52,464 bases of DNA from Parcubacteria group bacterium (GCA_041662285.1 JBAZSS010000004.1:1-52464), one strand, 5' to 3'. Positions 6,563-37,797 are shown, numbered from the stretch's first letter. The notes: generated by a model from the sequence alone, not told the origin. Numbers and translations are program-made.

Positions 6563-7339
6563 TTAAAGTTCGAGGTTTTTTATATACTTTGCGAAAAGAA
6601 TCACCTTTTTGGAGTCCTTAGCATTGAATAAAAATGGTTCGACATCCTCAGCTAACTCATTAAAATTAATTTTGTCAGAAAAAATAGCCAGCTTGCTTTT
6701 CAGCTCTTGCCAGTTTTTAATTTTCAATTTCAATTGAAGATAATCATAATTAGGTTTAGTTTTAGAAAGCAAAAATACCGTGTCAAAAAAATCCCTGCCT
6801 TTCAAAGCTTTGCGATTGAAAATTGCAAATATTTTTTGCGACAAAATAATATCCAGCGGGGTGACATTGATTTCTGTGAACACATCAAACTTATTGAGAA
6901 TCGCTTTTTCTGGTTTATATTGAAAATTATGCGGAGCCGTATCTAGCTGAATAAGAATCTTTTCTTCTTCGTAGCCAGAAAGACCGCTATCGAAAAGTAG
7001 TTTTGGAATTCGGATGTAGCAACGATAAGCACCTTTGAAAACATTTCTAATTTCTACTGCATAACCTTCCAGCTCCAGTTGTTTTTTCACCACTAGCGAT
7101 ATTTCATTGAATTCTTTTTCGCTAAGACCAAAATTATCAAAATCCAAATCTTCTGAAAATCTATTGTTATCATAAATGATCCGCAAGGCTGTTCCACCCA
7201 AAAACGCAAGTCTTTTGGCATATTTTGAATTGAAAATAATTTGCAAAATTTTGTATTGCAAATATTCGCGCAACAGATTGCGTTTAAAAACTTGAATATT
7301 TTCAGGATAATATTTTTCGATTTCTTGCAAGCTAAGCAT
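6563..7339 (-). CDS. abiEii: AbiEii/AbiGii-family nucleotidyltransferase toxin (type IV toxin-antitoxin / abortive infection)
   Basis: 258-aa ORF. The N-terminal LREYLQYKILQ...LAFLGGTALRIIYDNNRFSEDLDFD matches the family hallmark. It overlaps the upstream antitoxin ORF by 8 nt. Confidence 0.88.
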   Translation of the reverse strand: MLSLQEIEKYYPENIQVFKRNLLREYLQYKILQIIFNSKYAKRLAFLGGTALRIIYDNNRFSEDLDFDNFGLSEKEFNEISLVVKKQLELEGYAVEIRNVFKGAYRCYIRIPKLLFDSGLSGYEEEKILIQLDTAPHNFQYKPEKAILNKFDVFTEINVTPLDIILSQKIFAIFNRKALKGRDFFDTVFLLSKTKPNYDYLQLKLKIKNWQELKSKLAIFSDKINFNELAEDVEPFLFNAKDSKKVILFAKYIKNLEL

Positions 7340-7946
7340 TGAGATATTTCACAAAATTATTAATTCTTTTTTCCAGTGCCTTATTGTTAAATTGGGATAA
7401 ATATTCATTGAATTTTTTCATATCAACTTTTTCTTGAAATATATCCCTATTAATTCGAAGCTCTTCAAATTCCCCTATTGTCTTAAGCTTAGAATTTACA
7501 TAAAAATAATCTAGGATTGCTTTTTCGATTTCTGCTATTTTGAAATTATGATTTTGATAGGCAACCAACTGATAGCCAAACATAAGCTCGGGCTTGATAT
7601 GATGAAAATTAAACTGACCCAGCGGAGAAGCAAGCTTATAGGTTTTTTTGGATGTGACTGAAGTAATGCCATAAACGCTTTCTGGAATAAGACCATAATA
7701 TGACAGTGCCATTTCCAATGAAATATACGATGGTTCAAAAATTTTATTGGCGATAATAAACAAAACCGACTCATTAATTTGCGTGTCAGAAAAAACATAG
7801 AACCCCTTAGTAATTTTCTTGATGTAGCCTTTTTTCTGCCACTCACTCAATCGTTGCTTATGAAAATCCAAATCAACCTTTGATATATCATTAGCCGAAA
7901 AAACCATAAAATCCTTTAAATTGTCCTTTATTTCTAAATATTGCAT
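7332..7946 (-). CDS. abiEi: AbiEi-family antitoxin / transcriptional regulator
   Basis: 204-aa ORF. N-terminal wHTH-like FSANDISKV...LSEWQKKGYIKKITKGFYVF is typical of AbiEi. Translationally coupled to abiEii. Confidence 0.8.
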   Translation of the reverse strand: MQYLEIKDNLKDFMVFSANDISKVDLDFHKQRLSEWQKKGYIKKITKGFYVFSDTQINESVLFIIANKIFEPSYISLEMALSYYGLIPESVYGITSVTSKKTYKLASPLGQFNFHHIKPELMFGYQLVAYQNHNFKIAEIEKAILDYFYVNSKLKTIGEFEELRINRDIFQEKVDMKKFNEYLSQFNNKALEKRINNFVKYLNA

Positions 7947-9431: not shown

Positions 9432-12317
9432 TCAGTGGTTCAGAATTTCTCTCAAATATTTCCCTGTCCAACTTTCTTTATGATATTTCGCCACTTCTTC
9501 CGGCGTACCAGAAACAATTAGTTTTCCCCCGCCGTCTCCGCCCTCCGGCCCAAGGTCAATTATCCAATCAGCTGTTTTTATCACATCCATATTATGCTCG
9601 ATGACCACCACGGTGTTGCCGGCGTCCACCAAACGATTCAAAACTTTCAAAAGTTTTTTGATATCATCAAAATGCAAGCCGGTAGTTGGTTCATCTAAAA
9701 TATAGAGTGTGTCGCCTGTGGCTCGACGAGAAAGCTCAGTGGCTAATTTTATCCTCTGCGCTTCTCCGCCAGAAAGTGTGGTGGCACTTTGCCCCAGCTG
9801 AATATACCCCAAGCCCACATCTTCCAAAACTGCTAGCTTATCATGAATTTCAGGAAAATTTTGAAAAAATTCTCGTGCATCCGTGATTGTCAAATCCAAC
9901 ACTTCCGCAATATTTTTCTCCTTATATTTCACTTTCAAAGTTTCACTATTATATCTTTTTCCATTACAAATATCGCACGGCAGATAGACATCCGGCATAA
10001 ATTGCATTTCGATTTTAAGTTGTCCGTCCCCTTGGCAATTGTCGCATCTTCCACCCTTAACATTAAACGAAAATCTCCCAGGAGAATATCCTTTGCTCTT
10101 AGCATCTCGCGTCTCGGCAAAAAGTTCGCGAATAGGTGTGAAAAGGCCGGTGTAGGTGGCCGGATTAGACCTCGGCGTTCTTCCAATTGGACTTTGATCA
10201 ATCATAATAATCTTGTTGATATAGTGCGCGCCAACAATTTCACTGTGCTTGCCAGGGCGATCCAATGTTCGCATAATGTCACGCGCCAAAGATTTATACA
10301 GCACATCTTCGACCAGGGTTGATTTTCCAGAGCCAGAAACTCCCGTCACGCAAGTCAAAACTTTCAAAGGAAATTCTACTGTGACGTTTTTGAGATTATG
10401 CTCACGCGCTCCGCGCACAATAATAGATTTTTTGTTTTTCATACTCCGCCGAGAAGTTGGGATTTCAATGGATAATTCTTTTCGAAGATACTTAGCCGTA
10501 AGTGATTTTTTATTCTTCAAAACTTCCTGCGGTGTTCCAGAAGCGATAATTTCTCCGCCGTGACGCCCCGCTCCTGGACCAATATCCACCAAGTAATCGG
10601 CTGCTAACATTGTTTCTTCGTCATGTTCAACCACAATCAAAGTATTGCCAACATCGCGCAGTCGCAAAAGTGTTTCCAAAAGTTTAGTGTTATCTCTAGC
10701 ATGAAGCCCGACTGATGGTTCATCTAGAATATAGAGTACGCCAACTAATTGCGAACCAATTTGCGAAGCCAAACGAATTCTCTGCGCTTCTCCACCCGCC
10801 AAAGTTGCCGCGCTTCGTCCCAGTGTCAGATATCCCAGTCCTACATTTTCCAAAAAACTCAAACGATTTTTAATTTCGGTGAGAATTCTGCCTGCAATCA
10901 ATTCTTCTTTTTGACTAAATTTCAATTCCTTGAAAAATTTCAACGCTTCAAAAATACTCACCGAAGAAATTTCTGAAATATTTTTGTTATGCACTGTCAC
11001 CAAAAGAACTTCTTTTTTATATCTTACACCAAGACACTCCGAGCAAGGATTTTGCGACATATATTTTTCCGTGTCTGCACGCACCGCATCTGATTGCGTT
11101 TTCTTATATTTATCTTGCAAATAGCCAACCGCTCCGCGCCAATTCATATTATATTTCCAAACCGCCCCTGTTTTTGAGCGTAGTGTCACTGGGATCTGCT
11201 CGGCATTTTCTTCTGAAATCATATCTTTCGCATCTTTGTCTCCAAAGAGCAAGATATTAAAATCTTCTTCCGACAAATCTCGCAAGCGCGTATTTTCTGA
11301 GATATGAAAATGATTTGTCACAGCGCGAAGGATTGTTCCTTGCCAATTATTTTTCTTATAACTCCACGGCATAATTGCCCCTTCAGCAATAGTCTTGTTT
11401 TTATCCGGTGCCACAAGTTGTGGATCGATTTCTTTTTTTGTCCCTAATCCTTCACAAGCTGGGCAAGCCCCATAGGGGCTATTGAAAGAAAACAATCGCG
11501 GTTCCAGTTCCGGAAATTCAATTTCATGAATCGGACAAGCCAAATTTTGATTGAAAACCATTTCATTAACCTTTGACTTTTGACCTTTGACTTTTGACCT
11601 TATTTTAACTAGTCCTTCTGACAATTTCAATGCTTTTTCTACTCCTTCAAAAATCCGCGAAATATTTTTGTCCGAAATTTCAACTTCATCCACCAAAATA
11701 TCAATGCTATGCTTTTTATATTTTTCCAGTTTCATCTGCTCTTTTATCTTGGCATTAAGTTCAATTTTTTTTCCATTGACATAGGCAAAAGAATATCCAC
11801 GTCGAAACATCTCTGAGAGCATAGTGCCGTATTCCCCTTTTCTTTGCCTGACAACTGGCGAAAGAATTTCAATTTGGCATTCTCCGCACATATCAATTAC
11901 CCTATCCACAATTTCATCTACCGAAAGCCTAGTGATTTCTCGATTACACTCCGGACAATGAGGAATTCCAATTTTAGCATAAAGCAACCGCAGATAATCC
12001 TGAATTTCCGTCACTGTGCCCACAGTGGAGCGTGGATTATGCGAAGCCGCTTTTTGATCAATCGAAATGGCCGGTGAAAGGCCTTCAATATAATCGACAT
12101 CCGGCTTGTCCATTTGACCCAAAAACTGCCGAGCATAAGAAGACAAACTTTCCAAATAGCGCCTTTGACCTTCCGCAAAAATTGTGTCAAAAGCCAGCGT
12201 GCTCTTGCCAGAACCGCTAATGCCCGTGAAAACTATGAATTTATTTCTCGGAAGCTTAAGATCAATATTTTTTAAATTATGTTCTCTTGCTCCTTTAATA
12301 ATAATCTCGTCTTGCAT
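9432..12317 (-). CDS. uvrA: excinuclease ABC subunit A
   Basis: 961-aa [71 protein letters not shown]. Two ABC signatures ([24 protein letters not shown]) and zinc modules. Confidence 0.95.
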   Translation of the reverse strand: MQDEIIIKGAREHNLKNIDLKLPRNKFIVFTGISGSGKSTLAFDTIFAEGQRRYLESLSSYARQFLGQMDKPDVDYIEGLSPAISIDQKAASHNPRSTVGTVTEIQDYLRLLYAKIGIPHCPECNREITRLSVDEIVDRVIDMCGECQIEILSPVVRQRKGEYGTMLSEMFRRGYSFAYVNGKKIELNAKIKEQMKLEKYKKHSIDILVDEVEISDKNISRIFEGVEKALKLSEGLVKIRSKVKGQKSKVNEMVFNQNLACPIHEIEFPELEPRLFSFNSPYGACPACEGLGTKKEIDPQLVAPDKNKTIAEGAIMPWSYKKNNWQGTILRAVTNHFHISENTRLRDLSEEDFNILLFGDKDAKDMISEENAEQIPVTLRSKTGAVWKYNMNWRGAVGYLQDKYKKTQSDAVRADTEKYMSQNPCSECLGVRYKKEVLLVTVHNKNISEISSVSIFEALKFFKELKFSQKEELIAGRILTEIKNRLSFLENVGLGYLTLGRSAATLAGGEAQRIRLASQIGSQLVGVLYILDEPSVGLHARDNTKLLETLLRLRDVGNTLIVVEHDEETMLAADYLVDIGPGAGRHGGEIIASGTPQEVLKNKKSLTAKYLRKELSIEIPTSRRSMKNKKSIIVRGAREHNLKNVTVEFPLKVLTCVTGVSGSGKSTLVEDVLYKSLARDIMRTLDRPGKHSEIVGAHYINKIIMIDQSPIGRTPRSNPATYTGLFTPIRELFAETRDAKSKGYSPGRFSFNVKGGRCDNCQGDGQLKIEMQFMPDVYLPCDICNGKRYNSETLKVKYKEKNIAEVLDLTITDAREFFQNFPEIHDKLAVLEDVGLGYIQLGQSATTLSGGEAQRIKLATELSRRATGDTLYILDEPTTGLHFDDIKKLLKVLNRLVDAGNTVVVIEHNMDVIKTADWIIDLGPEGGDGGGKLIVSGTPEEVAKYHKESWTGKYLREILNH
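11570..11601. repeat. 14-nt tandem repeat (2.3 copies) inside uvrA, in frame
   Basis: CCTTTGACTTTTGACCTTTGACTTTTGACCTT on the + strand, encoding SKVKGQKSKV. Confidence 0.8.
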
Positions 12318-27134: not shown

Positions 27135-27183
27135 AATAATATTTTACTATTTATGCCTCTATAATAGCATATTTTCGCCAAAT

Positions 27184-27210
27184 CAAAAATCCCCCCTTAT
27201 GGAGGATTTT
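27184..27210 (-). terminator. intrinsic terminator after the Cys-rich gene
   Basis: The minus strand reads AAAATCCTCC-ATAA-GGGGGGATTTT followed by TGATTT. Confidence 0.65.
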
Positions 27211-27230
27211 AGACAATATTTATGCGTATA

Positions 27231-27767
27231 TTAATTTGTAGTTGAATTTGTAGTTGTAGGAACAATACATTTCGGTGCGCCAAAACATCCACATTCATTT
27301 TTTTCTCCCGGAACTATTTTTCCATTTTTACACCAATCTGGTGGTAACGGAGAAAGTTGTGGACATGAACCACATTTGCATGTTGGCGCTTTTGGGCATC
27401 CACAGTTGTCTTTTCCTCCTGATATTATTTGCCCGTCTTTGCACCAATCTGGCGGAAAAGAAGCAACTTGTTTACATAAACCACATTTATTTCGCAGAGA
27501 TTTTTCACATTCTTTTTTTTCTTCAAAAGTTTTCAAACCTTCATATTGATATTTTCCACAAAATTTATTATGCAAACACTCAGTGCTTTGACTATTATGC
27601 CACCAATAATTTTGACATTTTTCTGTTTTTAAATTATTTGTTTTATTTTTAGCTATTTTCATCGCGCCCATTGCCAGTATTCCCCCAACACTAATCACTG
27701 CAATAGCCACCGCCACTATAGTGCCAGTCTTGATTTTTGTTTTTGTCTTTGTTATTGTTTTTTTCAT
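27231..27767 (-). CDS. membrane-anchored Cys-rich protein with two tandem CGxC...PPDWCK.G.I..G....CGC..AP.C modules
   Basis: 178-aa ORF. TM helix GTIVAVAIAVISVGGILAMGAM, then 20+ Cys. Internal repeat CGLCKQVASFPPDWCKDGQIISGGKDNCGCPKAPTC / CGSCPQLSPLPPDWCKNGKIVPGEKNECGCFGAPKC. Confidence 0.6.
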   Translation of the reverse strand: MKKTITKTKTKIKTGTIVAVAIAVISVGGILAMGAMKIAKNKTNNLKTEKCQNYWWHNSQSTECLHNKFCGKYQYEGLKTFEEKKECEKSLRNKCGLCKQVASFPPDWCKDGQIISGGKDNCGCPKAPTCKCGSCPQLSPLPPDWCKNGKIVPGEKNECGCFGAPKCIVPTTTNSTTN

Positions 27768-27845: not shown

Positions 27846-28805
27846 CTATCTTTTCACCTCTCGATATTCTCTGGCAATTTGAGCTACATCTGTTATTTTC
27901 ACTTCTGGAATAATTTTACATTTTTTCGATTTATTGTTGATACATCCCATTCTAGCTTTGCTAGATGCTTCGTCCATTAAATCTATCGCCTTATCCGGAA
28001 AGGATCGTCCAGGCAACATTTTTTCTGATTGTTCTATGCAAGCCCTGATGACTTTTTCTGAAATTCTAACATTATGAAAAGATTCATATTTTGATTTTAT
28101 GCCCTTAAGTATTTCAAAGGTATCTTTTTTGCTCGGCTCTTTCACAAAAATTGGTTGCATTCTTCTTTTGAAAGCTAGGTCTGTATGAAAATATTGGTCA
28201 TATTCTTCTTTGGTCGTAGCACCGATTATTTGCAATTCTCCTCTAGCCATTGCTGGCTTAAAAATATCTCCCACTGAAACTGACTCGCCAGAACTTTCGG
28301 CCTGAATGAGATTGTGAATTTCATCAATAAAGAGAATGATTTTTCTTTTTGAGTTAGATATTTCATTGGTGAGCTTCCTCACTCTTTCTTCAAATTCACC
28401 CCGATATTTCGTTCCAGCCAAAAGAGCATTAAGATCAAGCATCAAAACTCTTTTGCCGAAAAGACTTGCGGGAACATTTTTCTGCGAAACATTATGCGCC
28501 AAACCTTCTACAATCGCAGTTTTTCCAACACCAGCGTCTCCAATCAGCACAGCATTGTTTTTAGTCCTGCGACTCAAAACCATAATAAGATGATTTATTT
28601 CTTTTTCTCGGCCGATGACCGGGTCAAGCTGGTTTTTTCTAGCTAAATCAGTGATGTCTTTTGAGAAACTGTTTATAACAGGTGTAGCGGTGAAAATTTT
28701 AACTGATTTGTTTTTTGAAAATCTAAACAATAAATAACCCAGCATAGCTATTACTATTATAGCCATGGAAGGGATTGGATTATTATATACAGAAAATATA
28801 TTCAT
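27846..28805 (-). CDS. membrane-anchored single-domain AAA+ ATPase homologous to NBD1 of ClpA/ClpB/ClpC
   Basis: 319-aa ORF. N-terminal TM helix, then [39 protein letters not shown], Walker B ILFIDEIH and [12 protein letters not shown]. No middle domain or NBD2. Confidence 0.8.
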
Positions 28806-28866: not shown

Positions 28867-30114
28867 ATGCAAACAATTTCTCTAAACCACAGAAGAAATG
28901 TCTCAATTTTGGCTCTCGGCGCTGAATCGGCTGGGAATTTTTCGGTTTTTCGTGATGGAAGAATATTTTCCTCGGATGATTTTGGGGATCTTTTAGAAGA
29001 AGCTAATTGGATAAAATATCAAGCATCCGTTTTGAAATATTTGAAGGATAATAAAATCAAACCGCAAATTATTCTAACCGATCTTCATCCACTATACAAA
29101 ACTACTCTTTGGGGAGAAGAACTCGCCAAAAAATCTAGCGCTAAATTTGTTCAAGTCCAACATCACCACGCCCACATATTTTCTGCTGTTGGAGACAAAA
29201 TTTTGCATAATACTTCCTACTTACTACCTCCTACTTTTTATTGCATCGCTATGGATGGCACTGGTTTTGGAGTAGATGAAAAAATTTGGGGAGGAGAAGC
29301 TTTTAAAGTAGAAAGTAGAAAGAATAAAGTAGCAAGCGTAAAACGAATTGGGCATTTGGAAAATCAGGTTATGGTTAGTGGGGATTTAGCCGTGCGAGAG
29401 CCAGCCAGAATGTTAATTGGAGTGTTAAGTAAACTGTTAAGTAACAAAGAAATATATCCTTTCATCAAAAAATATTATACCAAAAACGAATTTGAACTTA
29501 TATATAATCAGCTTCAACAAAATTTCAACTGCCTAGAAACTTCCAGCACTGGAAGAGTTTTAGACGCCATTTCGCTTTTATTAGGTTTTTGTGGGAATGT
29601 TAGAAAATATAAACACGAACCTATCGATAAACTCGAAAAAAATTCAGATACTCCGTATTCCGATTTAAAACCGAAAATAATTTTTGATAAAAAAGAAAAA
29701 AAATACATTCTTTTAACCACGCCCCTTTTTAAATATTTAATAAAAAATATTAACAAAGACAAGAAGAGACTTGCCACCACAGCTCAGATCTATATCGCCG
29801 AAGGGTTATATGAAATAATAAAACTAAAATGCTATAATAATGCAGGTTCAATCGTCCCGATTGAACCGCAAAGTTCTGATAAACTTAAATTTAAAAATTC
29901 AAATAAGATTTTGCCAGAAATAAAAGGTTTAGGCAAGATGCCTGAACCTGCCTATGCTCAGTATGATAATATTTTCATTTCTGGTGGCATTGCTAATAAT
30001 AAAATAATTTCAAATTATTTTATTTCCAAAGGTGCTTATGCTTCCAAGATAATTCCCCGTGGCGACGCCGGACTTTCTTTTGGGCAAATCGTTTATTATC
30101 TTTTGGGAAAATAA
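28867..30114 (+). CDS. hypF: HypF-like carbamoyltransferase, Kae1-like C-terminal domain only
   Basis: Start taken at MQTISLN (Met35 of the 449-aa ORF). ILALGAESAGNFSV, QHHHAH, and a C-terminal FISGGIANNKII...PRGDAGLSFGQ match the HypF C-terminal domain. Acylphosphatase, Zn-finger and YrdC-like parts are absent. Confidence 0.65.
   Translation: MQTISLNHRRNVSILALGAESAGNFSVFRDGRIFSSDDFGDLLEEANWIKYQASVLKYLKDNKIKPQIILTDLHPLYKTTLWGEELAKKSSAKFVQVQHHHAHIFSAVGDKILHNTSYLLPPTFYCIAMDGTGFGVDEKIWGGEAFKVESRKNKVASVKRIGHLENQVMVSGDLAVREPARMLIGVLSKLLSNKEIYPFIKKYYTKNEFELIYNQLQQNFNCLETSSTGRVLDAISLLLGFCGNVRKYKHEPIDKLEKNSDTPYSDLKPKIIFDKKEKKYILLTTPLFKYLIKNINKDKKRLATTAQIYIAEGLYEIIKLKCYNNAGSIVPIEPQSSDKLKFKNSNKILPEIKGLGKMPEPAYAQYDNIFISGGIANNKIISNYFISKGAYASKIIPRGDAGLSFGQIVYYLLGK
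29845..29948. repeat. short copy of the hairpin-ended (GGTTCA..CG) element, inserted in frame in hypF
   Basis: GGTTCAATCG-TCC-CGATTGAACC and GGTTTAGGCA-AGA-TGCCTGAACC match the two ends of 2125..2371 in reverse orientation. Translated as ...AGSIVPIEPQSS...KGLGKMPEPA... Confidence 0.65.
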
Positions 30115-30178
30115 AAGCCCCATACGATACGATTTCGCAGAGGCTCCGGATCATATTTGCCCAATCCGGTAGGCTTTT

Positions 30179-30200
30179 GTGGCGAGTTTGCCACCTTTTT
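30179..30200 (+). terminator. possible intrinsic terminator of hypF
   Basis: GTGGC-GAGTTT-GCCAC followed by CTTTTTGG. Confidence 0.5.
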
Positions 30201-30233
30201 GGAAAAATAATAACCATATACTATAAATCGGAA

Positions 30234-30635
30234 TTAAACTAATTCCAATTCAGAATCGGTCATAAGATTTATAAGAAAATCCGTACCCTTCTGACCGACG
30301 CCAAATGGATTTCCAATAATCCTTTTTTGAATTTTATGTTCTTCGAAATTGATTAATGACCATTTGATATTTTCATCCAATAGCCATGAAATCCTAAAGG
30401 TTTTTTTAAGTTCTGCTTCACTTATAATTCCTTTGGTCTTTTTTCTGGATTTATCAATATCTTCAAAATTAGTGTTTATTATTACTTCTGTAAATAAATC
30501 ACCAACGCAATCTCCATTTCTCTCAATTAAAGCCACCATCTGACTTAAATTAAAATTGTTAGATAGAAAAACCCAATCAATATTATTTCGAAAAAAAGAC
30601 GCCACCGCGTGAGCTTGTTGACCTGTGATTTCCAT
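30234..30635 (-). CDS. hypothetical protein
   Basis: 133-aa ORF downstream of the hypE terminator and convergent with hypF. No recognisable motif. Confidence 0.45.
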   Translation of the reverse strand: MEITGQQAHAVASFFRNNIDWVFLSNNFNLSQMVALIERNGDCVGDLFTEVIINTNFEDIDKSRKKTKGIISEAELKKTFRISWLLDENIKWSLINFEEHKIQKRIIGNPFGVGQKGTDFLINLMTDSELELV

Positions 30636-30696
30636 AGTTACTCAATTTCCTCCAAATTTAGTTCCAGCCTTAGGTTAATATCAACTTTTAAATTTT

Positions 30697-30723
30697 GCCA
30701 CAGCACAAAAAAAATCTTTGAGA
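30697..30723 (-). terminator. intrinsic terminator after hypE
   Basis: The minus strand reads TCTTTGA-TAATC-TCAAAGA followed by T8. Nested within a 10-bp inverted repeat TTTTGCCACA...TGTGGCAAAA. Confidence 0.65.
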
Positions 30724-30788
30724 TTATCAAAGACACTTTTTAGGTTGTGGCAAAATAGGTTTTATTTTGTTTTTAAAGAACAATTATC

Positions 30789-31802
30789 TTAGCAAATTCT
30801 TGGAATCAGTTTCCCTCTCGGCACTTCAATTTTTTTGACAGCGCCAATTTTGGTTTTGAGCCAAACTTCTTTGCCCTTTTGTACTTCTCCAATTATTCTA
30901 GCAGATTTATTATATTTTTTCAAAATTCCAATTACTTTTTGAGAATCTTTTTTCGCCACTGTTGCCACAAACCTTCCTTCTGACGGAAAAGAAAAAACAT
31001 CAATGCCAAGAAGTTCTGAAATCGCCACGGTTTCTTTTTTGTACGGCAAATCTTTTTCTTCCAAAACAAATTTAGTTTTGGATTTTTCAGCCATCTCGTT
31101 TAGCACTGCTGCCATTCCTCCTCTAGTTGGATCTTTGCATGAAGTGAGATATTTAGCCACACTTTGAATTTCGGCAATGAGCGGTTGGCAATCGCTTTTT
31201 ATTTTTGTTTGATAATTAAATCTCTTGGCTAAAAGCGCCACGGCATGCTCGCCCAAATCTCCAGAAACAATTATGTCATCGCCGACTTTGGCACCATCAT
31301 TGGAAATTATTTCTTTGGCTAATCCCACTCCGGAAGTGGTAATTTCGATTTTGTCGATCTTGCCTTTTTCGGTAACCTTTGTGTCCCCCGTCACAATCGG
31401 AATTCCTGCTTCTTTCGATATTTTATTTATAGACTGAATTATTTTTTCTAAATCACTTTGCAAAAAACCTTCTTCAATCACAAGACTCAGTGAAATTCCA
31501 ATTGGCTTAGCACCCATAACTGAAAGATCATTTATCGTTCCACAGATCGCAATTTTTCCAATGTCTCCTCCGGGGAAAAACAATGGGTCAACAATAAAAG
31601 CATCTGTGGTAAAAACCAATTTATTGCGCTCTGTAGAGACGCAACATGTTGCGTCTCTACTCAAGTCAAAAACCGCCCCATCATCCTTAGTGTTTTTCCA
31701 TTTTCCTTTCACACTCAAAATCTTTCTTATGTTTCCAATAAGTTCTTCGGATTTTTTTCCTCCTCCGCCCATTTCAAGCTCGATGATTTTATTATTTTTC
31801 AT
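30789..31802 (-). CDS. hypE: hydrogenase maturation protein HypE
   Basis: AIR-synthase-like fold ending in the HypE-specific C-terminal PRIC. Start taken at MKNNKII (ATG at 31802, 4 nt after the hypD stop) rather than the extended ORF start at 31898. Confidence 0.9.
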   Translation of the reverse strand: MKNNKIIELEMGGGGKKSEELIGNIRKILSVKGKWKNTKDDGAVFDLSRDATCCVSTERNKLVFTTDAFIVDPLFFPGGDIGKIAICGTINDLSVMGAKPIGISLSLVIEEGFLQSDLEKIIQSINKISKEAGIPIVTGDTKVTEKGKIDKIEITTSGVGLAKEIISNDGAKVGDDIIVSGDLGEHAVALLAKRFNYQTKIKSDCQPLIAEIQSVAKYLTSCKDPTRGGMAAVLNEMAEKSKTKFVLEEKDLPYKKETVAISELLGIDVFSFPSEGRFVATVAKKDSQKVIGILKKYNKSARIIGEVQKGKEVWLKTKIGAVKKIEVPRGKLIPRIC

Positions 31803-31806
31803 AGTA

Positions 31807-32841
31807 TTATTCGGTGAAACGAAAATTAATATTACATGACCCTTCCCTCGAAACCATGCAAGCGCCTTGCGGATTGTCCGGTGTACAAGATTTTCCAAAT
31901 AATTTACACTGCTTCGATTCGATCAGTCCTTGCAAGACTTCTCCGCAACGACAAATGCTTTTCCTTGGTTTAATTTCTTTTTTTATTTTCGCAATCAAAT
32001 CTCGGTGGATAAATTCAGCGTCAAGATGCTGATATTTTTTTCGAATTTTCAATCCTGATTTTTCAATTTCTCCCAAGCCCCGCCAAGAAGCATTTCTGAT
32101 TTCGAAAATTTCAGAAATTATTTTTTGTGCTTTTTGATTACCTTCCTTTTTCACTAGTCTTGTATATTCATTTTCCACTTTTTTTTCTCCAGAAATTATT
32201 TGATCCAAAAGCATTTCAATCGCCAGAAGAACGTCCTCTGCGCCAAAGCCAGCAATCACTTGTGGGATTTTGAATTTTTCATAAACTTCTGCTCCGATAA
32301 TTGCACTCACATGGCCTGGATTAATAAATCCATCAACTCTAATTTTGTTATTAGCCATTAAGGCTTCCATGGCTGGTGGAAAAAGTTTGTGCGAGGAAAA
32401 AACTGCAAGCCCTTCCTGAATCCCCCAAGCTGTCATCACGGTTGTCGTTTCAAAACCAATTCCCCAAAAAACTAGATTGGGAATTTTTCTGGAAAGTTCT
32501 AACGCTTCGATTACGTCATAAACGATGTGGACTTGCGCACCCTTTTGCCTGGCATTTTCCAAACTACCCAAACTTCCAGGAATATTTGTTGCGTCTCCAT
32601 AGCAAGCAATTGGAATTCCAGCAAGCGCTAGTCCCGTGACAATATCAATTTCACTTTGATCGGTGACGCAAACCGGACAACCAGGACCTGTGATGAGTTT
32701 TATATTTTTTGGTAAAATATTTTTTATCCCGTGCTTTGCGATTGCCTCACTGTGTGTCCCGCAAAGTTCCATAAATCGAAGTGGTCGATTTATTTTTTGT
32801 GCTTTCTCCCAAATATTTTTTATGATTTTCTTAGATTCCAT
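31807..32841 (-). CDS. hypD: hydrogenase maturation protein HypD
   Basis: 344-aa ORF with motifs MELCGTHSEAI, GPGCPVCV and NPGHVS, plus C-terminal Cys clusters. Confidence 0.9.
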   Translation of the reverse strand: MESKKIIKNIWEKAQKINRPLRFMELCGTHSEAIAKHGIKNILPKNIKLITGPGCPVCVTDQSEIDIVTGLALAGIPIACYGDATNIPGSLGSLENARQKGAQVHIVYDVIEALELSRKIPNLVFWGIGFETTTVMTAWGIQEGLAVFSSHKLFPPAMEALMANNKIRVDGFINPGHVSAIIGAEVYEKFKIPQVIAGFGAEDVLLAIEMLLDQIISGEKKVENEYTRLVKKEGNQKAQKIISEIFEIRNASWRGLGEIEKSGLKIRKKYQHLDAEFIHRDLIAKIKKEIKPRKSICRCGEVLQGLIESKQCKLFGKSCTPDNPQGACMVSREGSCNINFRFTE

Positions 32842-33037
32842 TTTTTAAGTAAGCGTTAATTTCTTTCACATTCTCTTTCTCCATCTTCTCAATCGCAAAA
32901 CCAGCATGCACCATCACATAATCACCAACCTTAACATCCACAATACTGATATTTATCTCTTTTTTGACGCCTTGAAAATCAACTATCGCCAGTTGATTTT
33001 TTATTTTTATAATTTTTCCTGGGATTGCGAGACACAT
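32831..33037 (-). CDS. hypC: hydrogenase maturation chaperone HypC
   Basis: 68-aa ORF starting MCLAIPGKI (the essential Cys2 motif). Overlaps the hypD start by 11 nt. Confidence 0.85.
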   Translation of the reverse strand: MCLAIPGKIIKIKNQLAIVDFQGVKKEINISIVDVKVGDYVMVHAGFAIEKMEKENVKEINAYLKNGI

Positions 33038-33081
33038 GCCAATTTTGTCTGCGAGCAGAGCGAGTAGCTACAAAATTGAGC

Positions 33082-33197
33082 ACCCCTGCACCAGTTCGCA
33101 GAACTATCTTAATATTATTATATTATTAAAGCCGTTAGGCGACCACGCACACTAAACTAAATATTATATCAATCTTTATTGGAACTGGTGCGGGGTT
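33082..33197. repeat. ~116-nt element with 15-nt terminal inverted repeats, between the HydA-like gene and hypC
   Basis: CACCCCTGCACCAGTTC ... GAACTGGTGCGGGGT. The right end abuts the stop codon of 33200..34228. Confidence 0.55.
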
Positions 33198-33199
33198 TC

Positions 33200-34228
33200 C
33201 TATAATCGAATCTTCCCCTCCCTTATCTTCTCCTCATCCCTCACCAATCTCGCTACTTCTCTTTCACTAATCACATAGTCCAAATTCTTATCTTTCTTTG
33301 CTTTTTCATAAACTCTTGAAGAAATGAAAAATATTACAATGTCTTGCTGATTTATTTTTTTGGTTCTAGAGTATTCATCTTTAATCTTTTTCACAAATTC
33401 AATTTTCAAATTTTCTTTTCCTAATTTTACAATTTTCTCAAAACCTAAATTAATTAGCAATTTATTCAAATCTTTCTCTGGGCTTATTTTTCCCATCACC
33501 TTTAATATTTTTTCTTCTATCCCAAGATCCAAAACTGCCACGGAAAATTTTTCGAGATTATCCAGATCTTCCACAATTTTTTGATAATTATTTTGATCAG
33601 TGAGCGCTCCCGTTGGACAAGCCTCTGCACATTTTCCGCAAAAACTGCAATCTAAAACTTTTTCATAGGGCGTTCCAACTACCACAGAATTACCACGATA
33701 GTTAAAGCCAAATTTTTTCTCTGGACAAACATTGATGCATCTTCGACATTCAATGCAAAGCTCGCTGTTTCTGGATATGCAAGGATTTTCATTTTCCACC
33801 ACTACACGCGACCAATTATCTTTGATTAAATCCAATTCTTCTGCGCCTGTTATCTCACCCTTTCTCGGAATAAAATGAAAATTTTCAATCTTATATTCCA
33901 ACGCCAAATTTTGCAATTCACACATTTGATTTTTTTTGCAAGTTGCGCATTTTCCAGCGTGATCCGCCCACAGCAGTTCCAAATTAATCCGCCGTGTTTT
34001 TTCTATTTTTTCGTTTTCAGTGATTATTTCCATTCCTTCGCAAACTTTTGTATTACAAGAAGTCACCAATCTTCCACCTATCTCAACAACACAAATTCGA
34101 CAAACTCCTTCTTGAAATTTTTTCGTCGAACACAAAGTCGGAACTTTTATCCCATTTTTTTTGCAAACCGCAAATATTGCTTCGCCTGATTTTGCCTCGT
34201 ATTTTTCCCCGTTGATTTTTATTTGCAT
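33200..34228 (-). CDS. HydA/HndD-like polyferredoxin lacking the H-cluster domain (2Fe-2S, a His-ligated 4Fe-4S and two 4Fe-4S motifs)
   Basis: 342-aa ORF. CSTKKF..CRIC...C 2Fe-2S, HAGKCATCKKNQMCELQ, CIECRRCINVCP and CSFCGKCAEACPTGAL. The tail shows only remnant similarity to the start of the [FeFe]-hydrogenase catalytic domain. Confidence 0.7.
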   Translation of the reverse strand: MQIKINGEKYEAKSGEAIFAVCKKNGIKVPTLCSTKKFQEGVCRICVVEIGGRLVTSCNTKVCEGMEIITENEKIEKTRRINLELLWADHAGKCATCKKNQMCELQNLALEYKIENFHFIPRKGEITGAEELDLIKDNWSRVVVENENPCISRNSELCIECRRCINVCPEKKFGFNYRGNSVVVGTPYEKVLDCSFCGKCAEACPTGALTDQNNYQKIVEDLDNLEKFSVAVLDLGIEEKILKVMGKISPEKDLNKLLINLGFEKIVKLGKENLKIEFVKKIKDEYSRTKKINQQDIVIFFISSRVYEKAKKDKNLDYVISEREVARLVRDEEKIREGKIRL

Positions 34229-34383
34229 ATTTTTCTCTTTTACTTAAATATTGTATTTTTATTTTTTTAAAAATTCTTGTTTGAAAAGTTTAATTTTATC
34301 TAAAAATTTCCATTTCAGCCGTTGATTGAGGGAAATTTTTAGTTATAAAATTAGACTTTGAGTTAATTTTTTAAAAAATAAAA

Positions 34384-35604
34384 TTACAATATTTTCAACT
34401 TTTCCACTACATCCCGAAACGCCGTCCCAGCGAATTTTCCCAATGGGCAAAAAGTCGTGTTGTCCAGTGTCCATAAAATATCTTGAATCGCTTCTTTGTC
34501 GCGAGCAGAAATTTCACCATCACGAAATCTTTTGGCAATTTCCCAAAGCCGAAAAGTCCCCTCTCGACACGGTACGCATTTTCCACAAGATTCTCGCCGA
34601 AAAAAATCCGTCCAAGAAATTAGCAAATCATAAATGTTAACACCTTTATCCACCACCAAAATTGATCCGGAGCCAAGTGGACATTCGCATTCCTTGCCAA
34701 ATTCCATTTTAGCTTTTAATTCTTTTTCTAGTAGAAGTTTTCCACAAGCGCCACCGATTTGGACAAACCAAAATTCTTTGCCTCTTTTTATTCCACCAGC
34801 ATATTCATCAATTAACTTTTTAACAGTTATTCCCGTTGGTGCTTCATAAGTCCCTGGTTTTTCCACAGCGCCGTTTAGCAAAAATATTTTTGTCCCCGGA
34901 GAATTTTTTGAGCCAATGGCCGAATATTTCTTTCCGCCATTGGAAATTATCCACGGAATGTTAGCTATTGTTTCCGCATTATCCACCACTGTCGGCTTGC
35001 CAAAAAGTCCCATCTCAGTTGGGAATGGTGGACGAATTTTTGGCTCTCCGCGATTGCCCTCAATGGAATTGATGAGTGCCGTCTCTTCTCCGCAAATATA
35101 TGCACCAGCGCCAGAAAAAATTTCTATTTCCAAATTGTAAGCTGAGCCTAGAATATTTTCTCCCCAATATTTTTTTTCTCGTGACTGCGCCAAAGCTTTT
35201 TCCAAAATTTCTTTTTGCTTTTCATAATTCCCATTGATGTAGATATAGGCTTTTTGAGCACCCACAATAAGCGCGGAAATTATTATGCCTTCCAAAAGAA
35301 GATGCGGATTATTATCCACTATCAATCTATCTTTGTACGTCCCTGGTTCTGATTCTTCCAGATTGCAAATGAAATACTTTTTTTCTTTTTGATTAGCTAC
35401 CATTCCTAATTTATCCCCCGTTGAAAAGCCCGCGCCCCCGCGCCCGCGAAGTCCAGAATTTTTAATCTCTTCAATTGCCTTTTCTGGATTCATTTTAAAA
35501 ACAAATTTTTCCAAGGCCGTGTATCCTCCAGCATTAATATAGTCCTCTATTTTCAAAGGATTTATTTTGCCCCAGTGTTCAGTTATGATTTTTATATCTT
35601 TCAC
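34384..35604 (-). CDS. NuoF/HydB/HoxF-like NAD(P)H-binding flavoprotein subunit
   Basis: 406-aa ORF (GTG start). GRGGAGFSTGDK FMN/NADH motifs and a C-terminal ESCGKCVPCREG 4Fe-4S motif. Confidence 0.9.
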   Translation of the reverse strand: MKDIKIITEHWGKINPLKIEDYINAGGYTALEKFVFKMNPEKAIEEIKNSGLRGRGGAGFSTGDKLGMVANQKEKKYFICNLEESEPGTYKDRLIVDNNPHLLLEGIIISALIVGAQKAYIYINGNYEKQKEILEKALAQSREKKYWGENILGSAYNLEIEIFSGAGAYICGEETALINSIEGNRGEPKIRPPFPTEMGLFGKPTVVDNAETIANIPWIISNGGKKYSAIGSKNSPGTKIFLLNGAVEKPGTYEAPTGITVKKLIDEYAGGIKRGKEFWFVQIGGACGKLLLEKELKAKMEFGKECECPLGSGSILVVDKGVNIYDLLISWTDFFRRESCGKCVPCREGTFRLWEIAKRFRDGEISARDKEAIQDILWTLDNTTFCPLGKFAGTAFRDVVEKLKIL

Positions 35605-35610
35605 AAAATT

Positions 35611-36060
35611 TTACAAATATTCTTCTAAAATGCTATGCAATGAACTCTTTGTCACTCGCTCATAAATTTTTCCATTTACCACCATCACCGGACCGTCAGC
35701 GCAACGACCAAGACAGCTAATTTCCTCCAATTTAAATTTCAAACTGACAGATCTTCCCGATTTTATTTTCAACAAATTTTCAACCTCAGAAATTATTGAA
35801 AAAGAATTATTCACTGTACAATTAGCTGAATTGCAAATTTGAACTAAAATATCCGGCTGTTTTTCAGTTTTAATTTCATCATAAAAACTGGCAGTTTCAA
35901 AAATCTTACTTTCGGAAACGCCAAAATATTCCGCCATTATTTTAGCGTCTTCTTCGCTCACATAACCAAAAACGGCGCTAATTTTTTTCAGCGCCGGTAA
36001 AATATTCTTAGCCTCAGGTTCAAACTCTAAAATTATATTCTGTATTGTTTTCTTAATCAT
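35611..36060 (-). CDS. NuoE/HydC/HoxE-like thioredoxin-fold 2Fe-2S subunit
   Basis: 149-aa ORF. Cys pattern C..NC...ISCLGRCADGP is typical of NuoE-type 2Fe-2S proteins. Confidence 0.8.
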   Translation of the reverse strand: MIKKTIQNIILEFEPEAKNILPALKKISAVFGYVSEEDAKIMAEYFGVSESKIFETASFYDEIKTEKQPDILVQICNSANCTVNNSFSIISEVENLLKIKSGRSVSLKFKLEEISCLGRCADGPVMVVNGKIYERVTKSSLHSILEEYL

Positions 36061-36097: not shown

Positions 36098-36958
36098 TTA
36101 GGCCTTACCCTCACTTCCGAAATATTTTATCTTTTGTTTCACTGTTTCCTTGACTGATTCTCTGGCTGCTTCTAAAATCTTTCTGACATCAAAATTAGTA
36201 CTTCCTCCCTTTAGGGAATTGATTAGGCTACTAACAAATGCCACGCGAATTGCAGTATCAACATTAAAACAAGATATGCCGTTTTTAATAGCTTCGACAA
36301 CTTTTCCATTTTCCCAATCCGACGCACCATGCAAGATCAGCGGGATATTACAAAGCTCATTTATTTTTTTCAATCTTTCAAAATCTGGAGTTGGTCTTTC
36401 CTTGAGAAAGCCATGCGAATTGCCAATGGCTACTGCCAATGCATCTACTCCGGTACTTTTTACGAATTCAGCCGCTTTTTGTGGATCAGTCATAAAATCG
36501 TCCCAATTGATTTCTCCTCCTTCAGTTTCTCCAATATAGAGAACACTACCTAATTCTCCTTGAACATCTACGCCTTTTCCATGACAAGAATCTACCACCT
36601 TTTTCGTGTTTCTTATATTATCTTCAAATTTTGCTCTTGAGCCATCATACATCACCGAACCAAAACCAATTTCCGTGCAACGCTCGGTAGCTTCAAAACT
36701 TTTTCCGTGATCTAAATGAATCCCTACGGGAATTTCCGGCGCATAAAACTCTACATCATTTTTCACGATATTATAAATCATCCGCCCTCCGGCATATTCC
36801 ATCGTCCTCTCTGTGATTTGAATGATCACCGGTGAACGCATTTCCTTGGCGGCATCCACAATCGCTCGGGTAGTTTCTAAATTAACCGTATTAAATGCTC
36901 CCACGGCATATCCCCCTTCTCTGGCTTTGGTTAGAATTTCTTTGACTGATGTAATCAT
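36098..36958 (-). CDS. fba: class II fructose/ketose-bisphosphate aldolase
   Basis: 286-aa ORF. GYAVGAFN, IHLDHG, GELG and LHGASD motifs. Confidence 0.85.
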   Translation of the reverse strand: MITSVKEILTKAREGGYAVGAFNTVNLETTRAIVDAAKEMRSPVIIQITERTMEYAGGRMIYNIVKNDVEFYAPEIPVGIHLDHGKSFEATERCTEIGFGSVMYDGSRAKFEDNIRNTKKVVDSCHGKGVDVQGELGSVLYIGETEGGEINWDDFMTDPQKAAEFVKSTGVDALAVAIGNSHGFLKERPTPDFERLKKINELCNIPLILHGASDWENGKVVEAIKNGISCFNVDTAIRVAFVSSLINSLKGGSTNFDVRKILEAARESVKETVKQKIKYFGSEGKA

Positions 36959-37032: not shown

Positions 37033-37797
37033 TTATTCCGTTATTAATTTAGCTATCTTAACAAACTCATGTGGCACCAGACTTTCCCTACCAATCAAGA
37101 CTCCATCCATTCCCGGATCCAAACAAACTTCTTTGACGATATTTGCCGAAACTGAACCGCCATAAATTATCTTCACTTTTTCGGCAAACTTGACTCCATA
37201 TTTTCCTACCAAAAATTTTCTAATCAAAAGCTTAGCGCTCATTATTTCATTAGCCGAAGGCAAATGATCTGGATTGTTCGAGCTTATCGCCCACACTGGC
37301 TCATAGCAGATAACCACATTTTCAATTTTTCCTCGACTAATATCCGCTAGACAATTTTCCAACTGTTGCAAAACAACTCTTGATCCTTCTTTTTTTTGTT
37401 CTCCATCTTCTCCCACACAAAGGACTGGCTTCAGGCCATTTTTGAGAGCTGAAATAACTTTTAGATTTACTTCTTCGTCCCGTTCGCAAAAATACCTTCT
37501 TCTTTCGCTGTGCCCTAATATTACATAAGCACAGCCAAAATTTTTGAGCATTGTTGGCGAAATTTCTCCGGTATAAGAACCCTTTTCTTCCCAGAACATA
37601 TTTTGCGCTCCGAGAATTATTTTTTTTATCTTAGCTTTTTGGAATCCCGGCAAATGAATGGTAGGCGGACAAAGAATGAGTTCGCAATTATTTATCTTTT
37701 TGCCAGTCAATTCTTTTTTGAATAAACTCAAATATTGCTCCTGCTGGGCAGGAGACAAAATATTCATCTTTAAATTTCCTATAATTAGCTTGCTCAT
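37033..37797 (-). CDS. tpiA: triosephosphate isomerase
   Basis: 254-aa ORF. GNLKMN, ILGHSERR, YEPVWAI and YGGSV motifs. Confidence 0.9.
   Translation of the reverse strand: MSKLIIGNLKMNILSPAQQEQYLSLFKKELTGKKINNCELILCPPTIHLPGFQKAKIKKIILGAQNMFWEEKGSYTGEISPTMLKNFGCAYVILGHSERRRYFCERDEEVNLKVISALKNGLKPVLCVGEDGEQKKEGSRVVLQQLENCLADISRGKIENVVICYEPVWAISSNNPDHLPSANEIMSAKLLIRKFLVGKYGVKFAEKVKIIYGGSVSANIVKEVCLDPGMDGVLIGRESLVPHEFVKIAKLITE

Follow-up and report, generated by a model that had tools for sequence, protein, structure and literature searches.

Hyp maturation genes beside a NuoE–NuoF module and a reduced [FeFe]-hydrogenase subunit in a Parcubacteria contig: a possible remainder of a Moranbacteria [NiFe]-hydrogenase locus

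The 52,464-nt sequence of a Parcubacteria group bacterium analysed here (the window, which is an entire contig) carries hypC, hypD, hypE, and a convergent hypF homologue next to genes for a NuoE-like protein, a NuoF-like flavoprotein, and a 342-amino-acid (aa) iron–sulfur (FeS) protein, which we call HydA* (accession MFA6159663.1). HydA* descends from a genuine large subunit of an [FeFe] hydrogenase, encoded at the same chromosomal position beside NuoEF. The explanation that we consider somewhat probable is that the block is the diaphorase and maturation part of a Moranbacteria [NiFe]-hydrogenase locus, in which HydA* is an FeS carrier and which lacks the catalytic genes at this site. All seven open reading frames (ORFs), which an earlier note on this DNA had picked out from the sequence alone, were recovered by the ORF list and the profile searches at the positions given in Table 1. 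Related loci were collected from one genome per GTDB species, which yielded 77 loci, and about 80 others came from later look-ups and from a scan of metagenomes; they are cited below by their L numbers.

HydA* begins with the N-terminal F-cluster domain of HydA, identified by its Pfam domains and by its ligands, all 16 positions of which are invariant across 42 homologues, and the best PDB matches of this domain were the HydA subunits of bifurcating [FeFe] hydrogenases. The best NCBIfam model, FeFe_hydrog_A6, matched HydA* at 177.7 bits (cut-off 765), the match ending at model position 265 of 571, and the Pfam scan gave no match of HydA* to PF02906. The H-cluster motifs L1 (TSCCPxW), L2 (MPCxxKK), and L3 (ExMACxxGCxxGGGQP) are all present in the canonical relatives and none of them in HydA*, where proper alignment revealed no intact H-domain either; the earlier note had already recorded that these motifs are absent, and the tail, residues 213–342, proved to be devoid of cysteine altogether. 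Judged from its sequence, HydA* cannot be a hydrogenase.

That the tail is nevertheless a remnant of the H-domain, as the earlier note had supposed by eye, was borne out by 470-aa intermediates, profile alignment, and structure comparison. Moranbacteria proteins of 466–484 aa, which carry PF02906, cover 96% of HydA* at 50–55% identity. The profile of 14 short-form tails aligned with that of 10 canonical Moranbacteria H-domains at an hhalign probability of 97.3% (E 2.4e-11), tail columns 1–128 corresponding to H-domain columns 1–191 of 376. In the AlphaFold2 model the tail forms a beta-alpha-beta fold at pLDDT 70–89, and it alone was interpreted, residues 87–211 (the FeS region, modelled cofactor-free) having pLDDT below 50; the best Foldseek matches of HydA* were [FeFe] HydA structures, and the NiFe-HydA of Acetomicrobium mobile matched over the FeS domain only. 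Compared with the 470-aa form, HydA* has lost an internal segment of about 45 residues containing the L1 position (SHCPSFN in the 470-aa form, TSCCPSW in canonical HydA), the L2 cysteine (ISSCVAKK became ISSRVYEK), and the C-terminal approximately 110 residues including L3 (MVCPGGCVNGGGQ). The 470-aa forms retain exactly four conserved cysteines in the part that is cysteine-free in HydA*. Searching the window by tblastn with the internal and C-terminal segments of the 470-aa type gave nothing better than E 0.5, and no frameshifts were found in the block. In a neighbour-joining tree of the FeS domain, which is a simple estimate, the reduced forms were monophyletic and sister to the canonical Moranbacteria clade, with the 470-aa forms basal and the short ones derived. 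HydA was thus reduced stepwise, from the canonical 572–606 aa to about 470 aa, where of the H-cluster cysteines only the four belonging to its [4Fe-4S] part are left, and then to about 340 aa with a tail free of cysteine, and the description of the 342-aa protein in the earlier note as a fossil [FeFe] large subunit lacking the H-cluster is well supported.

The short proteins form a family of more than 80 clusters (333–359 aa, 54–94% identity), and those with a taxon name belong almost all to Candidatus Moranbacteria, Moraniibacteriota, or Parcubacteria. The ratio of nonsynonymous to synonymous divergence (dN/dS; simple NG86 estimates here and below), calculated pairwise against four close relatives, was 0.07–0.16 for HydA* and 0.09–0.25 for its tail alone. 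Because the approximately 340-aa family is large and its dN/dS low, HydA* is considered to be under purifying selection and not decaying, its truncation being an ancient, selected state.

Several observations concern other reduced forms. In the 470-aa forms (L024–L045, L058, L120) the [4Fe-4S] part of the H-cluster still has its four cysteines, histidine stands in place of the proton-relay cysteine (SHCPS), and, in the alignment as read by eye, the residues corresponding to K358 and M497 of CpI are retained as well. Their H-domain of about 255 aa is near the size of the active “ultraminimal” archaeal enzymes, and they sit beside Hyp genes. Within 10 kb of the first 77 HydA loci there was no hydE or hydG candidate, the sole CxxxCxxC candidate being RlmN-like; as a long shot, the 470-aa relatives might be matured by Hyp proteins. 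One metagenome-assembled genome (MAG), C12_metabat.bin.56, contains a canonical NuoF–HydA locus (L056) plus a 470-aa HydA with hyp genes and a small subunit gene (L058), which reflects either two systems coexisting in one genome or a mixed bin. In a JGI contig (L082:3397–4432) HydA* is split into ORFs of 112 and 240 aa by a frameshift or an assembly error, while it is intact in three otherwise similar contigs. A putative type I restriction–modification system lies directly upstream of HydA* in L016.

The gene neighbourhood of the relatives connects the reduced HydA with a [NiFe] hydrogenase. According to the tblastn maps, the loci share a backbone of which the first half reads M24 peptidase, ruvX, GT2, galT, (VTT), tim, fba, [NuoE NuoF HydA*] and the second [hypC hypD hypE, convergent hypF], [x211], delta, (m10), alpha, (dfx), hypA, gap, amidohydrolase. 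In all lineages except that of the window, the block of delta, alpha, dfx, and hypA stands immediately before gap. The downstream genes were identified as those of the alpha and delta subunits of a sulfhydrogenase-type enzyme, desulfoferrodoxin, and HypA. By motif scan, [NiFe] large subunits (alpha) were found in 19 of the first 77 loci; they are about 419 aa long and carry RICGICPVVH and, at the C-terminus, DPCISCAVH. The small subunits (delta) have 243–318 aa and 12 cysteines. Both subunits are nearest to Pyrococcus furiosus sulfhydrogenase I (214 and 128 bits, respectively), with scores that stay under the equivalog cut-offs of NCBIfam. Where the genes downstream were inspected, beta and gamma subunit genes were missing within 10 kb, and the gene tables that were read showed no HypB. 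A short HypA follows the large subunit gene in the relatives.

Adjacency was counted only in loci with enough downstream sequence, which are not phylogenetically independent. Canonical HydA (572–606 aa, all motifs) had neither Hyp nor [NiFe] genes adjacent in any of 20 loci, in contrast to the reduced 470- or 340-aa forms, where Hyp genes were adjacent in 30 and [NiFe] genes in 31 of 41 loci (both in 22, [NiFe] only in 9, Hyp only in 8, neither in 2). The [NiFe] genes lie mostly a few kb downstream of HydA*, and in L113 and L120 HydA* is immediately upstream of the small subunit gene. Reduced HydA thus occurs with adjacent Hyp and [NiFe] genes and the canonical forms never do. Since [NiFe] genes are adjacent in 31 of the 41 reduced loci versus none of the 20 canonical ones, the Hyp genes most probably belong to a [NiFe] hydrogenase, and the simplest reading is that the Hyp proteins mature the alpha subunit and that the H-domain of HydA degenerated once the [NiFe] module was present. 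A 3b-like hydrogenase beside the locus, which the earlier note had considered, is found in the relatives, a few kb downstream, though not in the window contig.

Two further genes of the [NiFe] part deserve mention. A matrixin-like metalloprotease with a membrane anchor (PF00413, E 1.7e-10) is encoded between the small and large subunit genes, and its gene is conserved there in many loci (L011:17760–18713 and equivalents); since the large subunit ends at the histidine of DPCxxCxxH, no C-terminal processing protease is expected. The ORF x211 (L007:11398–12033, L013:14739–15425, and others), conserved at 211–228 aa and without a family match, lies in many loci immediately upstream of the small subunit gene and could encode an extra subunit or a maturation factor.

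The Hyp proteins of the window have the features of a HypCDE maturation set, that is, Cys2 of HypC in the N-terminal MCLAIPGK (TIGR00074, 74 bits, cut-off 48), HypD and HypE above their equivalog cut-offs (TIGR00075, 394.9 bits versus 192.8; TIGR02124, 344.4 bits versus 251.6, over residues 39–369 of the long ORF), and the PRIC terminus of HypE. The hypF homologue encodes HypF_C and HypF_C_2 only, matching positions 382–684 of the 741 of TIGR00143 at 201 bits (cut-off 466), and lacks three of the four domains of a full HypF (acylphosphatase, Zn fingers, YrdC-like, and Kae1-like), so the earlier note was right that just the Kae1-like C-terminal domain remains. Wherever HypF of the relatives was read or domain-annotated (ten homologues aligned, and called genes carrying HypF_C domains), it had the same two domains in about 370–465 aa, and because this also holds beside intact [NiFe] genes, the Kae1-only HypF characterizes the whole family and does not point to decay in the window. 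A YrdC/Sua5-type protein acting in trans would presumably have to supply the carbamoyl-AMP. All ORFs of the block are intact in at least eight genomes at a synonymous divergence of up to about 0.3–1.4. In the clade of the window dN/dS was 0.11–0.25 for HypC, 0.06–0.12 for HypD, 0.06–0.10 for HypE, and 0.22–0.32 for HypF, compared with 0.10–0.19, 0.08–0.16, and 0.09–0.17 for HypD, HypE, and HypF in the clades with linked [NiFe] genes.

The insertion of hypF, which had been taken for a repeat, is not one: Tandem Repeats Finder gave only trivial 7–10-nt arrays, and blastn did not find the segment repeated elsewhere in the window. These approximately 40 aa (around 29870–30000) represent a lineage-specific insertion in a variable loop, found otherwise in L001 only. 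HypF of L001, L003, L005, L009, and L013 contains in-frame, highly variable insertions at two loop sites of the Kae1 domain, and such insertions, e.g., SSSPFGRGCRVLATGEG and CHPERS..LPAGRQGS, resemble translated short mobile or palindromic elements. The gaps of the hyp clusters in L018, L025, L042, and L073 were considered as hiding places of hydrogenase genes and turned out to hold reverse-transcriptase-, PhoH/PIN-, and ATPase-like insertions. The inserted ORFs at L018:14303–15349, L042:10045–11104, L073:10195–11325, and L025:12773–14176 comprise a PhoH/PIN-like ORF and reverse-transcriptase-like ones, the latter putatively of group II intron or retron type as judged from the N-terminal sequence.

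The NuoE-like protein was matched by the NuoE, HoxE, and FdsG models of NCBIfam below their cut-offs, and dN/dS against close relatives was 0.08–0.13 for this protein and 0.11–0.17 for the NuoF-like one. The 406-aa NuoF homologue aligns over its full length to NuoF proteins of 418–434 aa and only to residues of about 114–508 of the 597–630-aa bifurcating HydB/NfnB, consequently it lacks the extra FeS domains, which bear clusters B2–B5. These clusters occur in all bifurcating Bfu enzymes and are missing from the non-bifurcating Nqo1, the NAD-reducing [NiFe] hydrogenase of R. eutropha, and Hyd1 of S. wolfei (Schut et al., PMC9304861). The NuoF homologue thus appears to be of the non-bifurcating NuoF/HoxF type. 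The earlier note correctly placed the Hyp genes beside a NuoEF-type module, but its label “bifurcating-type” was not confirmed, as the NuoF homologue has no HydB-like extra FeS domains.

The window belongs to a sub-clade in which the [NiFe] part is missing from the locus. In the window and in L001–L006 and L010, NuoE–NuoF–HydA*, hypCDE, (ORF133), and hypF are followed by genes for a ClpB-like protein, a Cys-rich protein, and a phosphomutase (pgm), and in the tblastn maps of these eight genomes delta, alpha, hypA, and gap were not found at the locus. L011 has the ClpB-like and Cys-rich genes as in the window and then the small subunit gene, m10, the large subunit gene, dfx, hypA, and gap. As L011 continues from the Cys-rich gene into delta and the window into pgm, the synteny break can be placed between these genes (Table 1), by gene order only. 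The statement of the earlier note that the 52 kb contain no catalytic subunit or hypA withstood Pfam scans, the motif scan, and tblastn with the subunits of the relatives, which found no [NiFe] subunit, hypA, or radical-SAM HydE/G candidate in the window, and among the 48 window ORFs scanned with Pfam there was no match to hypB, HydF, or maturation protease families. Because the Hyp genes are intact and under selection, we favour a [NiFe] enzyme elsewhere in the genome as their client. Moranbacteria also have four-subunit group 3b [NiFe] enzymes (PMC10811913), and GW2011_GWE1_35_17, an example in HydDB, has group 3b plus group 1a [NiFe] hydrogenases (PMC5037454). Among the HydA* clusters of the window clade, the member names linked one species to GW2011_GWF2_35_39 and RIFOXY MAGs and none to GW2011_GWE1_35_17.

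Based on these data, the following mechanism may be proposed. HypC, HypD, HypE, and the Kae1-only HypF would supply a [NiFe] large subunit with its Fe(CN)2CO unit, HydA* not being their client. Since the NuoF homologue lacks B2–B5 and HydA* keeps the ligands of four clusters, the trio has the cofactor set of HoxEFU, and it would act as a HoxEFU-like, non-bifurcating diaphorase linked to reduced nicotinamide adenine dinucleotide (NADH), in which electrons may pass between NADH/flavin mononucleotide (FMN) and the four clusters in HydA*. What is left of the H-domain, a half without cysteine, may have been kept as a structural or docking piece linking to the three-cluster small subunit. The whole assembly could then be an NADH-linked, HoxEFUYH-like enzyme with HydA* as the conduit, a proposal made because the [NiFe] pair comes without its own diaphorase, the cysteines of the small subunit suffice for three clusters, and HydA* precedes delta in L113 and L120. 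The partnership of NuoE–NuoF–HydA* with the [NiFe] enzyme is a suggestion from gene content and order. The setting among glycolysis genes would suit the disposal of NADH as H2. In the sub-clade of the window, the segment from the small subunit gene to gap would have moved away or been replaced.

A number of points weigh against this reading. The [NiFe] subunits are absent not only from the window contig but also within 10 kb in the seven relatives. In a search of 5.8 billion proteins with the L011 large subunit and P0122, nothing else exceeded 84% identity; P0122, the only close relative of the L011 subunit (90% identity), is encoded on contig L084, which starts exactly at the small subunit gene and leaves the upstream context outside. 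The metagenome scan yielded large subunits of at most 82% identity over a full-length match, all in the usual backbone or on short contigs. The clade of the window is well sampled, with at least 15 HydA* clusters in the protein collection and a species (P0018) with four listed NCBI accessions and at least two named MAGs, and since no close large subunit was found despite these clusters, the usual [NiFe] partner family seems to be absent from the sub-clade. Hyp, delta, and alpha occur without NuoE–NuoF–HydA* in L087, L091/92, L135, L141, L143, and L153, and because the modules occur also apart, a physical complex of NuoEF–HydA* with the [NiFe] enzyme is not required. The cluster is interrupted by the convergent hypF and the membrane metalloprotease-like gene. 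Finally, the tree is a simple estimate, and so are the dN/dS values, with dS saturated in several comparison pairs.

Some of these points would equally be explained if the two gene groups were neighbours and not partners, NuoE–NuoF–HydA* being an independent NADH:ferredoxin or NADH:acceptor oxidoreductase in a glycolysis-linked region and the Hyp proteins serving only a [NiFe] enzyme with another redox partner. We regard this as unlikely, yet it explains why Hyp and [NiFe] genes lack the trio in at least six locus types, why the trio stands without either in L008, from which the Hyp genes, delta, alpha, and hypA were cleanly excised together, and why canonical NuoE–NuoF–HydA fills the same slot after fba without [NiFe] genes; the convergent hypF separates the transcription units as well. 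On the other hand, loss of the H-cluster is confined to lineages that have, or once had, adjacent Hyp or [NiFe] genes (31 of 41 reduced versus none of 20 canonical loci), diaphorase subunits of the beta and gamma kind are lacking in the [NiFe] enzyme, L113 and L120 have HydA* right next to the small subunit gene, a structural precedent exists in NiFe-HydABCSL (PMC8880783), and a constrained, cysteine-free tail needs a reason to persist.

According to another explanation, the sub-clade has no [NiFe] hydrogenase at all, and the Hyp product or another Hyp activity serves a different acceptor, possibly together with NuoE–NuoF–HydA*. This seems rather improbable, and it appears still more doubtful that the sub-clade (the window, L001–L006, and L010) has no [NiFe] large subunit anywhere and that its Fe(CN)2CO system serves an acceptor other than a known hydrogenase. 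The Hyp genes are as constrained here as in the clades with adjacent [NiFe] genes, although the small and large subunit genes and hypA are missing at the locus in eight genomes and no close large subunit emerged from the 5.8 billion proteins for this well-sampled clade; moreover, where the hydrogenase was lost elsewhere (L008), the Hyp genes went too. However, the HydA* tail has no cysteine to hold a cofactor, and the window offers no candidate acceptor, as ORF133 is poorly conserved and has a single cysteine. The genomes are metagenome-assembled and incomplete, the other Moranbacteria [NiFe] families (four-subunit 3b and 1a; PMC10811913, PMC5037454) were not searched genome-wide, and Hyp and [NiFe] genes are unlinked in other relatives as well: L106, L127, L113, and L120 have [NiFe] genes without hypD or hypE nearby, and MAG ELA543 carries NuoE–NuoF–HydA*–hypCDE (L012) and the large subunit gene (L089) on separate contigs.

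That the Hyp genes and HydA* are non-functional relics of a decaying hydrogen metabolism on their way to deletion, one of the options of the earlier note, is very improbable: the H-domain is truncated, HypF lacks three of four domains, and the catalytic genes are missing from the contig, but the ORFs are intact in at least eight genomes with dN/dS of 0.06–0.32, more than 80 clusters have kept the length of 340 aa, the Kae1-only HypF stands also beside intact [NiFe] genes, and neither frameshifts nor leftover fragments were found.

The locus family has several implications. At one chromosomal position and within one phylum, a series can be followed from a working [FeFe] hydrogenase through the 470-aa form to a cysteine-free 340-aa carrier, and this series coincides with the arrival of the Hyp genes and the [NiFe] small/large pair. 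It illustrates the swap of a catalytic module under an unchanged NADH-side module, a principle also followed by NiFe-HydABCSL and the hybrid hydrogenases of archaea. The trio NuoE–NuoF–HydA* is also a candidate for the missing redox partner of the 3b-type hydrogenases of the candidate phyla radiation (CPR), the function of which was left open by Jaffe et al. (2020). HydA*-type proteins are annotated as “2Fe-2S iron-sulfur cluster-binding protein”, “NuoG”, “YjgC”, or “Hydrogenase, Fe-only”, and under such names they could be miscounted in surveys of hydrogen metabolism. Of particular interest is the sub-clade of the window, where Hyp genes under selection persist although no [NiFe] partner is visible, which makes it a test case of whether Hyp proteins ever work outside [NiFe] hydrogenases.

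Table 1. Features of the hyp/NuoEF block and its surroundings in the 52,464-nt window
Feature	Position	Strand	Description
NuoE/HoxE/HydC-like protein	35611..36060	-	149 aa; thioredoxin-like [2Fe-2S] protein; PF01257 at 116.5 bits
NuoF/HoxF-like FMN/NADH flavoprotein	34384..35604	-	406 aa; Complex1_51K, SLBB, NADH_4Fe-4S; single [4Fe-4S] site
HydA*	33200..34228	-	342 aa; Fer2_4, NADH-G_4Fe-4S_3, two Fer4
HydA* residues 1–212, F-cluster domain	33593..34228	-	[2Fe-2S], His-ligated [4Fe-4S], two [4Fe-4S]
HydA* residues 213–342, H-domain remnant (first half, no cysteine)	33200..33592	-	hhalign, alignment with 470-aa forms
HypC	32831..33037	-	68 aa; N-terminal Met-Cys kept; PF01455 at 94.9 bits
HypD	31807..32841	-	344 aa; TIGR00075 at 394.9 bits
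HypE	30789..31802	-	337 aa from Met33 of the listed TTG ORF; C-terminal PRIC
ORF133	30234..30635	-	133 aa; between hypE and hypF; sub-clade-specific
hypF homologue, convergent	28867..30114	+	415 aa from Met35 of the long ORF; Kae1-like carbamoyl-transfer domain only
Synteny break versus L011, the nearest [NiFe]-bearing relative	27135..27230	.	tblastn gene-order maps

The NuoE gene lies directly downstream of the genes for class II fructose-bisphosphate aldolase (36098–36958) and triose-phosphate isomerase (37033–37797), and the remaining genes of the window are housekeeping ones (uvrABC, lexA, RNase J, TrpRS, phosphomutase, galT, secY, adk, and the ribosomal protein operon). ORF133, which has no Pfam or NCBIfam match, was found only in the window, L001–L003, and L005 with a dN/dS of 0.16–0.42, and it is uncertain whether it is part of the Hyp/NuoEF system. 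The promoter and terminator scan of two intergenic gaps gave no informative signal, promoter-like sites being rarer there than in shuffled sequence. Next to hypF, a 319-aa ClpB-D1-like AAA+ protein (27846–28805, minus strand; AAA and AAA_lid_9) with an apparent N-terminal transmembrane helix is encoded, and its gene adjoins hypF also in L001, L004, L006, and L011. The membrane-anchored Cys-rich protein (178 aa; 27231–27767, minus strand) has no Pfam match and contains an internal duplication (CGLCKQVASFPPDWCKDGQIISGGKDNCGCPKAPTC / CGSCPQLSPLPPDWCKNGKIVPGEKNECGCFGAPKC); the equivalent slot of L011, from the ClpB-like gene to the [NiFe] small subunit gene, is occupied by a 314-aa gene with a similar N-terminus. 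In the uvrA/uvrC/uvrB/lexA region (3336–6125, 6563–7946, and 9432–12317, minus strand), an AbiEii-type toxin gene and an unannotated ORF stand between two UvrA paralogues.

Among the known systems, one of the closest is NiFe-HydABCSL of A. mobile, an electron-bifurcating member of the Bfu family (PDB 7T2R/7T30; PMC8880783, PMC9304861). Its HydA keeps the fold of [FeFe] HydA without the H-cluster, is wedged between HydBC and HydSL, and passes electrons to the [NiFe] module via the extra cluster A5 (PMC8880783). The likeness comprises the NuoE-, NuoF-, and HydA-like subunits, the absence of the H-cluster motifs from HydA, the predicted role of HydA as electron conduit and docking subunit between the flavoprotein and the [NiFe] modules, and, in the relatives of the window only, the [NiFe] small and large subunits joined to the trio; the window subunits matched chains A (E 3.8e-24) and B (E 7.5e-103). 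HydA of A. mobile (692 aa) keeps the full C-terminal domain and A5, while HydA* has half the domain and no cysteine in it; HydB (597 aa) has the bifurcation domains B2–B5, which the 406-aa NuoF homologue lacks; and the A. mobile enzyme has a one-cluster small subunit and a 3d-like large subunit, in contrast to the Moranbacteria pair, which has 12 cysteines in the small subunit and is nearest to Pyrococcus sulfhydrogenase I. Of the features of the Bfu type, the window thus has neither B2–B5 in HydB, nor A5 at the C-terminus of HydA, nor [NiFe] genes in the cluster, although HydA* does resemble Bfu HydA in lacking the H-cluster.

In its cofactors the trio agrees with HoxEFUYH (group 3d), having [2Fe-2S], FMN plus [4Fe-4S], and [2Fe-2S] plus three [4Fe-4S] (PMC11647496) and a flavoprotein predicted to be non-bifurcating. 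The HoxU model (NCBIfam NF005745) matched residues 3–214 of HydA* at 123.5 bits, below its cut-off of 333, but the [FeFe]-hydrogenase model scored higher (177.7 bits, residues 2–266). HoxU has about 240 aa with only the four FeS motifs, while HydA* adds the conserved 130-aa remnant of the H-domain, and the partner [NiFe] subunits in the relatives seem to be of 3b and not 3d type. HydA* therefore appears to work like HoxU without being a member of its family by descent. The ancestral state of the locus was probably a trimeric [FeFe] hydrogenase of the Syntrophomonas wolfei Hyd1ABC type (NCBIfam group A6), which is NADH-dependent and non-bifurcating and has a short beta subunit without extra clusters (PMC9304861); at the same position in other Moranbacteria, canonical HydA of 572–606 aa (TSCCPSW, MACPxGCxGGGGQP) follows NuoE and NuoF. 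Compared with this type, HydA* lacks all three H-cluster motifs and about 245 residues.

In CPR [NiFe] hydrogenases related to group 3b, the beta and gamma subunits are frequently missing, as described by Jaffe et al. (2020, PMC7304191); in that study no association with NuoEF–HydA was described, and the hyd2 small subunits were truncated, with a mean of 164 aa versus 243–318 aa here. The archaeal hybrid [FeFe]/[NiFe] complexes (Greening et al., 2024, PMC11216029) likewise have NuoE, NuoF, and a HydA-/NuoG-like conduit beside group 3 [NiFe] subunits, but their small subunit is fused with a genuine H-cluster domain, whereas the HydA derivative of the Moranbacteria is a separate, degenerate protein that has four cysteines in the 470-aa type and none in the type of the window. 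In view of NiFe-HydABCSL and these hybrids, the claim of the earlier note that such an arrangement had not been described cannot be maintained in general; for CPR bacteria, no description of the NuoE–NuoF–HydA*–Hyp–[NiFe] arrangement was found in the literature searched. The locus family is a new variant on the theme of a HydABC-derived or HoxEFU-type diaphorase combined with a [NiFe] hydrogenase (PMC8880783, PMC11216029).

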